From a phage: a stretch of DNA of 64,000 nt. This document shows, piece by piece, positions 1 to 4,561 of the stretch (its first letter is position 1; the number at the start of each line of letters is the position of its first letter). The notes under the pieces were generated by a model, which saw only the letters and a program-made list of their open reading frames with translations, was not told the origin of the DNA and ran no database searches. The DNA is taken from NCBI GenBank assembly GCA_036253495.1, contig GCA_036253495.1_4125.1; one strand, given 5' to 3'. The translations under genes and the position numbers were made by a program.

Positions 1-88
1 TTCTTATGTATAATTTAATCTGTACTGCTATTGTTCCTTTCTTTTATGAAATTCACAATAACATTAAACGTAAAAAACGAGGTTAATT

Positions 89-442
89 ATGTTTTCTCCT
101 GCTGGGCAAGTTATATTCATGTTATGTACACTGGTATTCTTTATGTTCTCTGTACTACTTGTGATGAAATTCTTTCACATGAAACCATTCAGTACTTGGT
201 ATGATAATATTGTGTACTATATTGGTAATGCTATAACACTCTTTTCAGTTGCATACTATTTCGGTTATTTTGCAATGCTATTTGGGTTATTACTTGAGGC
301 TCGTGCATTGCTTGTAGCTGGTATGATGGCAGATTTAATGTGTATAACACTAGCCTGTATTGGATTTACTGTATGTATGTCGTTAACCATTTTTGACAAA
401 TTATGTAAACTACACAAACGTTTAGGTGAGAGGATGAAATAA
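89..442 (+). CDS. small integral membrane protein
   Basis: 117 aa, several hydrophobic TM-like segments; GAGG SD upstream; first of three coupled ORFs. Confidence 0.6.
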   Translation: MFSPAGQVIFMLCTLVFFMFSVLLVMKFFHMKPFSTWYDNIVYYIGNAITLFSVAYYFGYFAMLFGLLLEARALLVAGMMADLMCITLACIGFTVCMSLTIFDKLCKLHKRLGERMK

Positions 443-825
443 TGACTTACCGTGATTACTTTTGTATTTTTGAAATTGCAGTATTCGCTTTAGGTTCAGT
501 CTGGTTACTTCTATACTACTTCTGTATTAATCCAGTATTCAATTGGGTTCGTCGTGCTGAACAAAGTAGTGCTGGACAAATAGCAGTTGTTATGGGTATG
601 ACATATTATATGTTCGCCGTAGCTTCTGTTGTTATTGAAGTAATATTTGGTGGCATGAATGGTGATGATGGGGCAACGTTCTATGGATTCGTTACATTCT
701 TTAGTGTGCTGATTCCGTGTGGTGCTCTTATTATTACTGCGTTCTATTGGCTATATCGTGGTGTTAAGAAGCTGGAATCAATTCACGTAGATATGCGTTC
801 AAAACGAATGGGGATTGACAAATAA
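442..825 (+). CDS. small integral membrane protein (possibly DUF350/YjfL-like)
   Basis: 127 aa, TM-rich; ATGA start/stop overlap with upstream ORF; sits before DUF1190-like gene as yjfL does before yjfM. Confidence 0.55.
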   Translation: MTYRDYFCIFEIAVFALGSVWLLLYYFCINPVFNWVRRAEQSSAGQIAVVMGMTYYMFAVASVVIEVIFGGMNGDDGATFYGFVTFFSVLIPCGALIITAFYWLYRGVKKLESIHVDMRSKRMGIDK

Positions 826-1376
826 TGAAACGAAGTTCTAATGTCATTCGTGAACGATTTCGTAAAGTAAAAACTATTAAGTACGGAGCGATTGCCTTGG
901 CACTTAGTAGTACTTTTATTATGACTGGATGTGAACGCTCTGAAGATATTTCTGTATATCAGAATGTGGACCAATGTAAAAGAAGTGGTAGCAATCCGGT
1001 ACAATGTGAAGATGATTATAAAAAAGCACTAACTGAATCGGAAAAGGTAGCACCAAAATATAGTTCACAAAGTGATTGCTCTAGTGATTTTGGTAATCAG
1101 TGTCAACAGCATAGCTCTGGATTCTTTTGGATGCCAATTATGAGTGGATTCCATAGTAGTGGTAATGGGTTTGCTAGTCAACCATTATACAACTCTAAAG
1201 GGAACTTCTATGATGCTGGTGGTAACTCCTACGGTAGCAGTACTGCAAAAGGTACAACACGTACTGTATCAAGTTCCGCATTAGCTCCAAAACCTCCTAC
1301 AACGACCACAATCACCCGCAATGGGTTTGGGTCTTCAGTAGCCAGAAGTGCCGCTCACACGAGTTCTGGTGGATAA
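825..1376 (+). CDS. DUF1190 family lipoprotein (YgiB/YjfM-like)
   Basis: signal peptide with lipobox IMTGC; motifs QCQQ, FWMP, APKPPTTTTITRNGFG recalled from E. coli YgiB; ATGA overlap with upstream ORF. Confidence 0.65.
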   Translation: MKRSSNVIRERFRKVKTIKYGAIALALSSTFIMTGCERSEDISVYQNVDQCKRSGSNPVQCEDDYKKALTESEKVAPKYSSQSDCSSDFGNQCQQHSSGFFWMPIMSGFHSSGNGFASQPLYNSKGNFYDAGGNSYGSSTAKGTTRTVSSSALAPKPPTTTTITRNGFGSSVARSAAHTSSGG

Positions 1377-1380
1377 TAAA

Positions 1381-1407
1381 AAAAGCCCACTTAATGTGGG
1401 CTTTTTG
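1381..1407. terminator. bidirectional rho-independent terminator
   Basis: AAAAAGCCCAC-ttaat-GTGGGCTTTTTG between convergent genes. Confidence 0.75.
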
Positions 1408-4341
1408 TTATTTGTGTTTTATGTGTAAAGTGTCTAATATTGTATTGAACAATGATTTAGCAGAAATCATGATTACTTGATCAAAATCTTTAGTATAAGA
1501 AATATTAGCAGTACTGGAAGAATCTTTCACCTCATCCGGTAATGCATCAAACTCTTCTTTTTCCATAATCTTTTCAAGTTCTTCACGAGAAATGGCTTTT
1601 ACGTTTTCAATAGTCCTTAGTTGTATATTATAATCTTTATAATACGAAACTAAGTTCGTTGCGTATGAACCATCTTTAGATGCTGTGCCAGTAAAATCAT
1701 AACATCCTGTATCAGTACTAACCCAATCGATTTTCCCTGAACTACCACTATATACACCTTTGTTAAATTTAATATTAACAACATCGCCAATAGTTTTCAA
1801 TATACCACCTTTACATTCATTAAATGCGTTTAATTGATAACTTGTAGTCATATAGAATTTCGGTTCTAATGTAACAGTATCACCTACAGTTGCTTTCATA
1901 TCAGAAACACTTAAGAACAATTCATTAAATCCTTTTGAATAAGTCTTGGTAATTGTTGTCCCATCCCTGTTAGTTACTGTGTATTCTAAGTCCAATTCAC
2001 AAATACTATTCAATGATAAGTAAGGGATATCAAATTTATCAGTACTAGCATCATAAGGACATCTTGAGGATGGTAGTATACCAGTAGGGTTTGGTACGTA
2101 TTGAACTTTTGTTAACTCATACCCGCTTGCATTCGCTGGTGTAACTGTAATAGACGGTGTAGATATTCCTTTCATTCCACAGAAGTATATGTTATCTGGA
2201 AAATCATTTATTACGAAGTCAGTGACAGGAATATCATAAGTATCTTTATCAGTCCAATTAAGAACAACATTAGAACTGGTTGGATCAACAATATGTTCAC
2301 TAGAACCACAGAAATATACTGATTTGGTATTAGTAATCATTAGTAATGTTTTGGATGATGAGTTCAATTCAAGAACATCTTTCACTTCAAGACCAGATGG
2401 TAATGTCAATGGTAACTTCGTGAATGATGTTAAATCTTGTTCATCTTTAACACCACTAGTCCCCGCCGGAAACTTACCTGAACCATAGAAAACACCTTTA
2501 TTCGTCATGAAATACATGAACGGGGTTGATGTTCCTTTGTCAAATAGTTTAATGTCATCACATGTTAAACCATCAGGTAAACTTACTTTAGATGGAGTTC
2601 TATAAACACCAGGCTTAATACCACCTTCACCATTACTTACATCACCTAGTACATATAAATCTTTACCTAGTTTTAAGAACATTGATTTATTTTTAGCACA
2701 CAAGAATGTATCATATGATTTATCATCAATTGGTAGCTTGGTATACTCGGTGTATGTATGTATTGAATCATCAATCCACGAACTATCACCACTAATGTAA
2801 ATGTGATTGTTTCTGTCAATATAATATGAATACACATCAGTACTGTTCATATATAAAGCATTTAGTGCATTTGTTTTCACTAAGTGATTGAACTTAAGAA
2901 CTTGTTTTCCATCGTACTTATGGGAGTTGACACCAATATCACCATTCAGGCTACTACCAAATGAATATATGTGACCACGTGGTAATAGAACTTGAACACC
3001 ACTTTTGGTTAAATTATATTTGGAGTGCAAGAGATCGTTATATACAACTCTAACTTTCTTAAAGATATCAGTACATTCAATCCACGATTTAGATGGTGTA
3101 CCATCCATTCCTATTATTGCTGGATCACCATAATAATAAGCTTTATTTTCATATGATATTTTAAAAGATGATTTACCATCTTTTGTATTAGCACTGAAAT
3201 ACACATCTTTACTATCTTTAATTGGATAAGTACTATTCTCTACAAAAGTATTATATGAGATATCGTTGTTAGCACTATTAAGAACAAAAGAAGTAGATGT
3301 ACTATTGGACTTATAGACTGCTACGGAAGATGTATCACTGAAATCAATTTTAGTGAACGTATCTTTGTATGTTTCGTTTAATAATCCTACATAAAAAACA
3401 TCAGTGCCATCAGTAACGAATATAGCATTTCTATTATTACATAAAGAAGTAATATTTTTTACTACTTTATTTGAATTATAGTTCGGTAACTTCTTTAATC
3501 CACGAACAAAATTATCACAAATAATACCAGTACCATAGAAGTTATAATCTTTATCACAGTATATAAATGCTGTATCATATGGTGAAGTACTTAAATTCTT
3601 ATAGAATGGGAATGGAGTGAATGTGAATTGTAGAACATTACGCAATTCCCCTACTGTCTCTGTTGGGAATTGTCTGTTTTTATTATTTCCAAGAAAAACA
3701 ACTCTATCTGTTAGGTATGTGTACATAATTCCATATGGTTTTACGTACAAGTCATTATATCCTAATGATAATTTAGTTGGTGATGTTAGTGGACCGGAAT
3801 TTATTTTATTTTGGTTAAAAGAAAATTCATTTGAATTATAACCAGCCCCATATGTATTACCATCAGTACTTAAATAATATACAGTAGCTTCCCCTGCTCC
3901 AAGAAAAGTCTTTACATCAGTTGCTAACGTTTTTTTGAAAGTTGGATAAAATTTATTATATGTTCCCGTTCCCATCATCAGTTCACCATTGCGGTTATGA
4001 CCACGAGCATATAGAATACCTTTGTCTGTATCTAAGAAGAACATTCCATTATATGTTTTGTAAATCTTACCTTTTGTAATATCGAAATTGGAAAAATCAT
4101 CACTAATATCAATGAATATTGTCTCAAGGTTATCTTCAAGGGAGTTTAGAGATTTACCACAATACCATACTGAGTTATCTTTTTTAACAGCAACACAACC
4201 ACACGGACTGGCATCAAAATATGTTACATCGGAAAGAACCAGTGATAAGTTCTTTGTACTGCAATAGTTATCCATTGCATATAAATCGGAATCTTTAAGT
4301 ATATATACGGAATTCCCAACCGCTTTAATCGAATTTATCAT
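1408..4341 (-). CDS. large RCC1-like repeat protein (candidate tail fibre/receptor-binding protein)
   Basis: 977 aa from ATG with GAGGA SD (track TTG start at 4431 lacks SD); GxNxxGELxxG-type blades; lacks MLPFVRM N-terminus. Confidence 0.6.
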   Translation of the reverse strand: MINSIKAVGNSVYILKDSDLYAMDNYCSTKNLSLVLSDVTYFDASPCGCVAVKKDNSVWYCGKSLNSLEDNLETIFIDISDDFSNFDITKGKIYKTYNGMFFLDTDKGILYARGHNRNGELMMGTGTYNKFYPTFKKTLATDVKTFLGAGEATVYYLSTDGNTYGAGYNSNEFSFNQNKINSGPLTSPTKLSLGYNDLYVKPYGIMYTYLTDRVVFLGNNKNRQFPTETVGELRNVLQFTFTPFPFYKNLSTSPYDTAFIYCDKDYNFYGTGIICDNFVRGLKKLPNYNSNKVVKNITSLCNNRNAIFVTDGTDVFYVGLLNETYKDTFTKIDFSDTSSVAVYKSNSTSTSFVLNSANNDISYNTFVENSTYPIKDSKDVYFSANTKDGKSSFKISYENKAYYYGDPAIIGMDGTPSKSWIECTDIFKKVRVVYNDLLHSKYNLTKSGVQVLLPRGHIYSFGSSLNGDIGVNSHKYDGKQVLKFNHLVKTNALNALYMNSTDVYSYYIDRNNHIYISGDSSWIDDSIHTYTEYTKLPIDDKSYDTFLCAKNKSMFLKLGKDLYVLGDVSNGEGGIKPGVYRTPSKVSLPDGLTCDDIKLFDKGTSTPFMYFMTNKGVFYGSGKFPAGTSGVKDEQDLTSFTKLPLTLPSGLEVKDVLELNSSSKTLLMITNTKSVYFCGSSEHIVDPTSSNVVLNWTDKDTYDIPVTDFVINDFPDNIYFCGMKGISTPSITVTPANASGYELTKVQYVPNPTGILPSSRCPYDASTDKFDIPYLSLNSICELDLEYTVTNRDGTTITKTYSKGFNELFLSVSDMKATVGDTVTLEPKFYMTTSYQLNAFNECKGGILKTIGDVVNIKFNKGVYSGSSGKIDWVSTDTGCYDFTGTASKDGSYATNLVSYYKDYNIQLRTIENVKAISREELEKIMEKEEFDALPDEVKDSSSTANISYTKDFDQVIMISAKSLFNTILDTLHIKHK

Positions 4342-4561
4342 GTTTATATCCTCATAAATTGATACCAATTCTAATGTATTTACCCACTTAAAGTACAAAA
4401 AATGATCAATTAAATGGGGAATCTTTAACAAATGAATTCATGATGTACTTGATGAATTGCCCATACCAACGGATTCCCCAGTCCCAGCATACCACATGGT
4501 ATTATCGAACTTTTTTATAATTGTAGTATCATAACCACACCAAACATCATCAACATTAGTA

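Follow-up and report, generated by a model that had tools for sequence, protein, structure and literature searches.

Three consecutive open reading frames (ORF1, ORF2, and ORF3) lie at the start of a 64,000-nucleotide stretch of phage DNA (contig GCA_036253495.1_4125.1; the whole stretch is called the window here), and the third almost certainly encodes a DUF1190/YgiB-type lipoprotein, as judged from its sequence. We tentatively propose that ORF3 is a functional surrogate of bacterial YgiB that acts on the envelope of the infected cell and relies on host machinery, a reading to which we assign a probability of roughly 0.45. An accessory operon of an A4-like jumbo myovirus ends here, and this 3′ region has two separable components, the DUF1190 gene and a tandem array of small membrane protein genes to which ORF1 and ORF2 appear to belong. 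Over window bases 1 to 1500, the identity to Escherichia phage A4 is 98.3%; A4 is a jumbo myovirus of 355 kb that is placed in Asteriusvirus.

ORF3 matched the Pfam family DUF1190 (PF06693) with 111.9 bits (cutoff, 22; E = 4.9e-32) over profile positions 2 to 156 of 159, and it matched phrog_3739 with an E value of 9e-55. Its product aligns over the full length with Escherichia coli K-12 YgiB at 42% identity (E = 7e-51), compared with 26% for YjfM (E = 2e-12), which makes it a YgiB-type rather than a YjfM-type protein. The first-pass annotation, which was made from the sequence alone, had proposed a DUF1190 lipoprotein on the basis of the strings IMTGC, QCQQ, FWMP, and APKPPTTTTITRNGFG; all four are present, and the family assignment is borne out. 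NCBI already labels a 98%-identical protein DUF1190. Residues 1 to 19 have a net charge of +7 and are followed by a hydrophobic stretch and a lipobox with Cys36, which would leave a mature protein of 147 amino acids. In an alignment of 14 sequences (phage proteins, YgiB, and YjfM), Cys36 and the cysteines at positions 51, 61, 85, and 93 are invariant, as are T162, R165, G167, and G169 of a TxTRxGFG motif and the glycines G182 and G183 (ORF3 numbering). An AlphaFold2 model of ORF3 is confident for residues ∼37 to 160, with a predicted local distance difference test score (pLDDT) of 77 to 91, while the signal peptide and tail residues 162 to 183 are predicted to be disordered, the tail scoring below 50.

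The same features recur across the family. An exhaustive DUF1190 profile search yielded 1,270 clusters at 50% identity, of which the top 150 representatives were inspected. A lipobox was found in 140 of these 150, and a Gly-Gly C terminus, usually [F/W/M]-G-G, in 114 of the 133 representatives that retain the C-terminal region; among DUF1190 loci fetched with their context, 104/105 end in GG. Conservation across phage and bacterial homologs is 0.70 in the n-region, 0.57 in the folded domain, and 0.40 in the h-region. The n-region, MKRxxNIxxxRFRK (ORF3 residues 1 to 15; window positions 825 to 869), is cleaved off and yet is better conserved than the folded domain. Such conservation is unusual in a signal peptide and suggests a possible cytoplasmic recognition or regulatory role.

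Selection was assessed on variable codons pooled over four near-identical sequences (the window, A4, and two contigs). ORF3 is clearly under strong purifying selection, with 23 of its 30 variable codons synonymous (P = 5e-10). The corresponding count is 6/8 for ORF2 (P = 0.0025) and 4/9 for ORF1, which shows no significant excess (P = 0.11). All three ORFs are intact in A4 and in the two contigs, which are ∼97 to 98% identical to the window. An apparent disruption of ORF1 in one of them (L120), where the gene call is 87 amino acids long, proved to be an artifact of start codon choice. The synonymous excess, the relatives with intact frames, and the DUF1190 match indicate that the ORFs are real genes. 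Synonymous differences per codon among the four phages are about three times as frequent in ORF3 (23 in 183 codons) as in ORF1 (4 in 117) or ORF2 (6 in 127), a surplus that may reflect a different recombination history of the DUF1190 gene. The G+C content at third codon positions (GC3) is 0.26 in ORF3 versus 0.54 in E. coli ygiB, an AT-rich and phage-like composition. In an unbootstrapped neighbor-joining tree, none of the phage clades falls within the enterobacterial YgiB clade, and the RaK2 protein is sister to that of the window. Judging from GC3 and the tree placement, the DUF1190 gene has resided in phages for a long time. The locus was not found as a prophage or an episome in the complete E. 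coli genomes searched.

The bacterial and phage genes differ in their association with a ligase. The bacterial context is tolC-ygiB-ygiC with no DUF350 neighbor; ygiC lies directly 3′ of ygiB, within a few bases, in 80/80 Enterobacterales loci, and tolC lies 5′ of ygiB in 58 of them. RefSeq names YgiC and YjfC, both of which E. coli possesses, as peptide-spermidine ligases, which are GspS-like ATP-grasp enzymes, and their physiological substrate is described as unsolved (PMC11762307). Homologs of TolC, YgiC, YjfC, YjfI, YjfJ, YjfK, and YjfL were sought in the 64-kb window, and none was found. For DUF1190, 137 phage records carry the gene; they come from unrelated lineages, and nearly all are of phages that infect Enterobacterales. 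YgiC-like genes occur in 144 phage records, among which there are no Escherichia, Klebsiella, or Erwinia phages. Twenty-five viral contigs with DUF1190 were fetched, and 22 have no ligase within 6 kb; the three that do have one are the most divergent. The DUF1190 neighbors in CR3, 4MG, and Ea35-70, including the CR3 “ATPase” gp112, match no Pfam family and are not ATP-grasp proteins. Phages of Enterobacterales thus carry an orphan DUF1190 gene, and phages of non-enteric hosts carry the DUF1190-ligase pair. Ligase pairing is a context feature of the bacterial system and not of the DUF1190 protein family.

Three ligase-linked loci illustrate the paired arrangement. A 436-kb IMG/VR contig (L034, 5971 to 9346) encodes DUF1190, a YgiC-like ligase, and a genuine DUF350 protein that is 36% identical to E. 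coli YjfL. Aeromonas phage phiAS4 (NC_014635; L117, 1344 to 1952 and 2501 to 3697) encodes a diverged DUF1190-like lipoprotein, ORF0185, ∼550 bp upstream of a YgiC-like ligase. This protein has an LSGC lipobox, the four-Cys pattern, a GGFG motif, and a GG end, and its gene adjoins one annotated “lysis inhibition.” It escaped a tblastn search with the window protein, and the lipoprotein-ligase pair is therefore probably common in the ∼100 ligase-carrying T4-like phages of Aeromonas and Acinetobacter. Ochrobactrum phage vB_OspM_OC (L118, 1981 to 4161) carries DUF1190, an SprT-like metallopeptidase gene, and a ligase, in that order. Its DUF1190 protein ends in VAG and the related copy of locus L028 in VSS. 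A terminal GG was considered as a strict correlate of ligase linkage and was rejected on account of these two ligase-linked copies.

ORF1 and ORF2 appear to belong to a family of three-transmembrane (3-TM) inner-membrane proteins of ∼110 to 130 amino acids that is specific to jumbo phages of the RaK2/CBB/121Q type. The array of phage A4 comprises seven tandem ORFs (A4_228 to A4_234), each encoding ∼106 to 127 amino acids with about three TM segments, and the window start cuts through an array of this kind within its fifth member. The truncated frame ends in PFFYEIHNNIKRKKRG and a stop, in agreement with the C terminus of A4_232, which terminates at the position equivalent to window base 86. 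Crude hydropathy plots show three hydrophobic segments of TM length in both ORF1 and ORF2, and both have basic C-terminal tails (..KLHKRLGERMK and ..IHVDMRSKRMG.., respectively). By the positive-inside rule, this suggests that the array proteins may be oriented N-out/C-in, so that the basic tail lies in the cytoplasm. Every RaK2/GAP32/CBB-type jumbo phage examined has an array of 4 to 8 such genes 5′ of the DUF1190 gene. An all-against-all phmmer comparison of array proteins gave 363 pairs at E < 1e-3, against none in a shuffled control. A hidden Markov model (HMM) of 46 CBB-type members found the ORF2 ortholog at E = 2.9e-6 and the ORF1 ortholog only at E = 0.05. In full-length hhalign comparisons with the CBB-type array family, ORF2 reached a probability of 90.5% (E = 1.4e-6) and ORF1 89.2% (E = 2.2e-6). 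Membership of ORF1, detectable only by this profile-profile comparison, is thus less secure than that of ORF2. ORF2 also matched phrog_27618 (E = 8e-30), and its product is 100% identical to A4_234; ORF1 had no match in Pfam or NCBIfam. Homologs of ORF1 were found by tblastn in 32 Escherichia/Salmonella jumbo phage records, always with an ORF2 homolog adjacent, and those of ORF2 in 45 jumbo phage records. PHROGs divides the array among nine families, all labeled “membrane protein” or unknown. Just before the A4 array, A4_227 (L001, 4132 to 4350) encodes 72 amino acids with two hydrophobic segments and is annotated “endonuclease V,” which looks like an annotation error.

The first-pass annotation had compared the two small membrane proteins to DUF350, and this comparison did not hold. 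ORF2 scored 17.8 bits against DUF350 (PF03994), below the cutoff of 26 (E = 0.0036), and it was the only one of 60 array members to match DUF350 at E ≤ 0.05; the others matched 19 unrelated membrane families with similar E values. Against an alignment of genuine DUF350 proteins that comprised two sequences only, the ORF2 family reached an hhalign probability of 0.2% and the array family one of 1.2%. Conversely, the array HMM scored genuine DUF350 at E = 0.18 (E. coli YjfL) and E = 0.92. In precomputed Pfam records of close relatives, the array genes are without a family assignment. With three TM segments rather than the four of YjfL, and with a single subthreshold match, ORF1 and ORF2 were rejected as DUF350 members.

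The array and the DUF1190 gene each occur without the other, and we therefore see no obligate module. DUF1190 is found without the array in Vequintavirinae (4MG and CR3), in Agricanvirus (Ea35-70), and in the T4-like Moonvirus (Merlin). Conversely, ∼30 Escherichia/Salmonella jumbo phages of the 121Q/PBECO4/fEgEco12 type have the array without DUF1190, with the ORF1 and ORF2 homologs adjacent. The fEgEco12 array leads directly into convergent RCC1 genes, and in 121Q an unrelated soluble protein of 219 amino acids fills the DUF1190 slot. A conserved soluble protein of ∼217 amino acids without a Pfam family is encoded in or near this slot by 121Q gene 233 (L116, 4754 to 5413) and fEgEco12 g581 (L115, 5611 to 6261). 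Both were considered as diverged DUF1190 copies and were rejected as soluble and unrelated. The association of array and DUF1190 is best read as loose synteny inherited within one jumbo phage clade.

Under the surrogate reading, ORF3 would be exported by Sec, lipidated at Cys36 and cleaved by host Lgt and LspA, and further processed by Lnt. Asp at position +2 after the lipidated Cys is the classical Lol avoidance signal and leads to retention in the inner membrane. The +2 residue is Glu in the window protein, in 80/80 bacterial YgiB proteins, and in the Vequintavirinae copies. Since it is Glu and not Asp, Lol would most likely sort ORF3 to the outer membrane, as predicted for YgiB, and the four remaining cysteines would most likely form two periplasmic disulfides. 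We infer that ORF3 would then top up or replace a Cpx-induced, dosage-sensitive envelope factor of the host during the long infection cycle, and that it would use host YgiC/YjfC wherever the DUF1190 family needs a ligase. A conserved YgiB-like role is favored because the invariant features are kept, because the gene occurs in unrelated phage lineages, and because purifying selection is strong. Retention of every residue that is invariant in YgiB and YjfM, together with the absence of the YgiC partner, makes a surrogate role the most likely one. On the host side, ygiB is Cpx induced, and a ygiB mutant shows H2O2 sensitivity when kept in simulated colonic fluid (bioRxiv 10.1101/2021.12.13.472529). 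YgiB is 3- to 4-fold more abundant in a tsp mutant, and its overexpression alone cuts beta-lactam persistence ∼10-fold (PMC13435647). These host data fit a dosage-sensitive envelope role of YgiB. An earlier comparative study predicted DUF1190 to be a “metal-chelating lipoprotein” (PMC11237479).

Several points weigh against this interpretation. ORF3 reached 156.2 bits against the YgiB equivalog model (NCBIfam NF008655/PRK11653), below its cutoff of 223, so by sequence it is best described as a DUF1190 family member that the equivalog model does not certify as a functional equivalent of YgiB. It also lacks the long Ala/Gln-rich insert of the E. coli protein, and fold searches gave no functional lead. 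The DUF1190 gene is dispensable, since it has been lost from ∼30 121Q-type phages that still have the array. Most sister jumbo phage copies have Asp at +2 (CDE or CDD, that is, Asp-Asp or Asp-Glu at +2/+3), so localization may differ between phage lineages, and the phage versions may have diverged in localization or function. Asp at +2 was seen in loci of the RaK2, GAP32, CBB, BF, fHe-Yen9-04, and Ea35-70 types (L010 to L019). Finally, the biochemical role of YgiB in bacteria is itself unsolved (PMC11762307).

The roles put forward in the first-pass annotation (superinfection exclusion, envelope remodelling, and lysis control) are speculative. Superinfection exclusion is an unlikely alternative. 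In this reading, masking or modification of an envelope component would fall to the lipoprotein and blocking of DNA entry to the diversified 3-TM array, with paralogs perhaps directed at individual competitors. Lipoproteins and small inner-membrane proteins are the classic effectors of exclusion (Llp, Cor, Imm, and Sp); the T5 Llp and Cor proteins mask or modify FhuA, and T4 Imm blocks DNA entry at the inner membrane. The array paralogs diverge fast and vary from 4 to 8 copies between related phages, ORF1 is little constrained, and the genes lie in an accessory region downstream of denV- and nrdC.10-like genes. Bacterial ygiB, moreover, adjoins tolC, whose product is known as a receptor for phages and colicin. 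Receptor masks are usually phage specific, whereas ORF3 keeps the bacterial invariant residues, and the lineages that share DUF1190 are unlikely to use one receptor; the 137 phage records from unrelated lineages therefore argue for a conserved biochemical role over a phage-specific mask. The strong purifying selection on ORF3 shows no sign of an arms race. PHROG scans returned no annotated exclusion family, only families labeled “membrane protein” or of unknown function, and the PADLOC defense models gave no match, although the proteins could still work in the manner of known exclusion factors. Deletion of ygiBC leaves the localization, folding, and activity of TolC unaffected (PMC11762307). 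It is distinctly unlikely that ORF3 acts as a decoy or antagonist of the host YgiB-YgiC (and YjfM-YjfC) pathway, competing against YgiB of the host for either the ligase or some periplasmic partner and so disabling an envelope stress function to the advantage of the phage; in a variant of this reading, host YgiC modifies the phage protein itself. The obligate partner gene is absent, yet the n-region, TxTRxGFG, and -GG tail motifs are kept, YgiB dosage alone perturbs envelope-related phenotypes, and phages of non-enteric hosts carry DUF1190 with the ligase. Against this reading, the ligase is cytoplasmic and the mature lipoprotein periplasmic, DUF1190 as an interactor or substrate of YgiC/YjfC is unsupported while the physiological substrate is unsolved, and the two ligase-linked copies of Ochrobactrum phage OC and L028 have no GG end. 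A further hypothesis takes DUF1190 proteins to be the physiological partners or substrates of YgiC/YjfC, with the orphan copies in Enterobacterales phages hijacking the host ligase to make a polyamine-tagged envelope lipoprotein. The n-region (MKR..I....FRK), TxTRxGFG, and the terminal [F/W/M]-G-G would serve as recognition elements before export, and the ligase would attach a polyamine to the C-terminal glycine by an amide bond. We rate this as improbable because the ligase is cytoplasmic and two ligase-linked copies are without GG.

Control of lysis timing by spanin-, holin-, or antiholin-like factors is very improbable. Membrane protein and lipoprotein genes do stand together at the operon end, and the DUF1190-like gene and ligase of phiAS4 adjoin the “lysis inhibition” gene. 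Nevertheless, mature ORF3 is globular, has a bacterial housekeeping homolog, and at 147 amino acids far exceeds the ∼40 to 60 of o-spanins; it has no i-spanin-like partner, its neighbors being 3-TM proteins without a periplasmic coiled-coil domain. PHROG scans returned no holin, antiholin, or spanin families, and in other phages the DUF1190 gene stands in varied non-lysis contexts. The arrangement favored by the first-pass annotation, a three-gene module of the yjfL(DUF350)-yjfM(DUF1190) type acquired as a unit, is hardly credible. It could draw on the weak DUF350 match of ORF2, on the translational coupling of ORF1 to ORF3, and on the genuine DUF1190-ligase-DUF350 triad of L034, which is the real counterpart of the arrangement proposed for the window. 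In the window itself, however, the DUF350 match is below the gathering score, profile-profile and HMM comparisons likewise fail to connect the array to YjfL, ORF1 belongs to no Pfam or NCBIfam family, the TM counts differ, ORF3 is YgiB-type, and the components are separable both ways.

The layout of the locus is given in Table 1; the three frames were found exactly where the first-pass annotation had placed them. Both the ORF1/ORF2 and the ORF2/ORF3 junctions are TAATG stop/start overlaps, which makes the translational coupling it had proposed plausible. Its strong bidirectional terminator closing the operon is likewise predicted here. The hairpin pairs 11 bp, 5 of them GC, around a 5-nucleotide loop and is followed by a U-tract on either strand; its folding energy is −18.3 kcal/mol (z = −6.3 relative to shuffles), and it scores as a terminator in both directions. 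The convergence with RCC1 genes also stands, with an ORF of 1,007 amino acids on the minus strand (1408 to 4431) showing RCC1-like repeats (PF25390; E = 1.3e-15, under the gathering score). This single ORF corresponds to two genes in A4, A4_236 (668 amino acids) and A4_237 (314 amino acids), and to calls of 182 and 307 amino acids in the 97%-identical contigs L120 and L121. The variable fragmentation among close relatives could reflect frameshifts, mosaicism, or sequencing errors.

Table 1. Predicted features at the operon end, with coordinates in the window
Feature	Position	Strand	Basis or remark
Array member 5, 3′ end (last 28 codons and stop)	1..86	+	Ortholog A4_232 (127 aa [amino acids], 3 TM); window edge cuts gene
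ORF1, array member 6, 117 aa, predicted 3-TM inner-membrane protein	89..442	+	ORF list, hydropathy
ORF2, array member 7, 127 aa, predicted 3-TM inner-membrane protein	442..825	+	phrog_27618, array HMM, hhalign
ORF3, DUF1190/YgiB-type lipoprotein precursor, 183 aa	825..1376	+	PF06693, phrog_3739, YgiB identity
ORF3 predicted signal peptide: basic n-region MKRSSNVIRERFRK, h-region, lipobox I-M-T-G-C	825..932	+	Cys36, +2 Glu
ORF3 predicted mature folded domain, aa 37-160, four invariant Cys (51, 61, 85, 93)	933..1304	+	
ORF3 predicted disordered C-terminal tail with T-x-T-R-x-G-F-G and terminal Gly-Gly	1305..1373	+	pLDDT, alignment
Predicted bidirectional intrinsic terminator of the array/DUF1190 operon (+) and the RCC1-like gene (−)	1380..1406	.	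Hairpin, T-runs

Phage YgiB-like lipoproteins have been known since 2015. The window gene is one more member, fairly ordinary as accessory genes go, of a family whose annotated copies span over 130 phage genomes; as a single gene it matters little. What is new here is the distribution of orphan and paired genes by phage host range, the finding that the n-region and the terminal GG are conserved throughout DUF1190, and the assignment of ORF1 and ORF2 to one diverged 3-TM array family of jumbo phages rather than to DUF350. YgiB/YgiC and YjfM/YjfC are conserved lipoprotein-ligase pairs with ties to the physiology of TolC, to the Cpx response, and to persistence. Phages offer a natural dissection of the pair, with the lipoprotein alone in those of Enterobacterales and both partners in those of Aeromonas, Ochrobactrum, and others. 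The orphan pattern points to the n-region, the four Cys, TxTRxGFG, and the terminal GG as the critical parts of DUF1190. The phage proteins are compact variants without low-complexity inserts that model far more confidently than YgiB and are suited to biochemistry. The tandem 3-TM array constitutes an uncharacterized, fast-diverging family of jumbo phage membrane proteins that is scattered over its nine PHROGs families.

Comparison with known systems places both components. DUF350/YjfL proteins resemble the array proteins in being small, polytopic inner-membrane proteins of similar length that sometimes adjoin DUF1190 in bacteria, but they have four instead of three TM segments and no significant sequence relationship to the array. 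The arrays of the RaK2/GAP32/CBB/121Q type (phrog_27618, 13405, 16874, 19792, and others) share with ORF1 and ORF2 their length, 3-TM layout, an aromatic juxtamembrane segment after TM1, a basic C-terminal H/R-N-x-x-x-K-R tail, and a position after an nrdC.10-like ATPase gene. These arrays lie 5′ of convergent RCC1/kelch genes, and ORF1 and ORF2 are only 10 to 18% identical to the CBB-type members. E. coli YjfM is encoded in the yjfIJKLMC operon, in which YjfJ is a PspA-family protein, YjfL a DUF350 protein, and YjfC a ligase. It shares the Pfam family, the Cys pattern, and the GG end with ORF3 and differs in its lower identity, in an N-terminal extension of far greater length, and in having Ser at +2. 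The likeness to E. coli YgiB (b3037) extends to the n-region MKR(T/S)..I....FRK, the lipobox with Glu at +2, the four Cys, FWMP(L/I)M(A/S)G, APKP..TTT.TR.GFG, and the terminal GG. ORF3 is shorter (183 versus 223 amino acids), is without the glycine-rich MGRLMGGG loop, and has no ygiC downstream and no tolC upstream. The annotated phage YgiB-like lipoproteins (phrog_3739), including those of Citrobacter phages Moon and Merlin, Pectobacterium phage CBB (gp547), Klebsiella phage K64-1, and Escherichia phage 4MG (gp029), belong to the same family at 27 to 57% identity to ORF3 and, like it, are all orphans without a ligase. Among them, the window copy falls in an A4/RaK2 subclade and has Glu at +2, where RaK2, CBB, and Ea35-70 have Asp.

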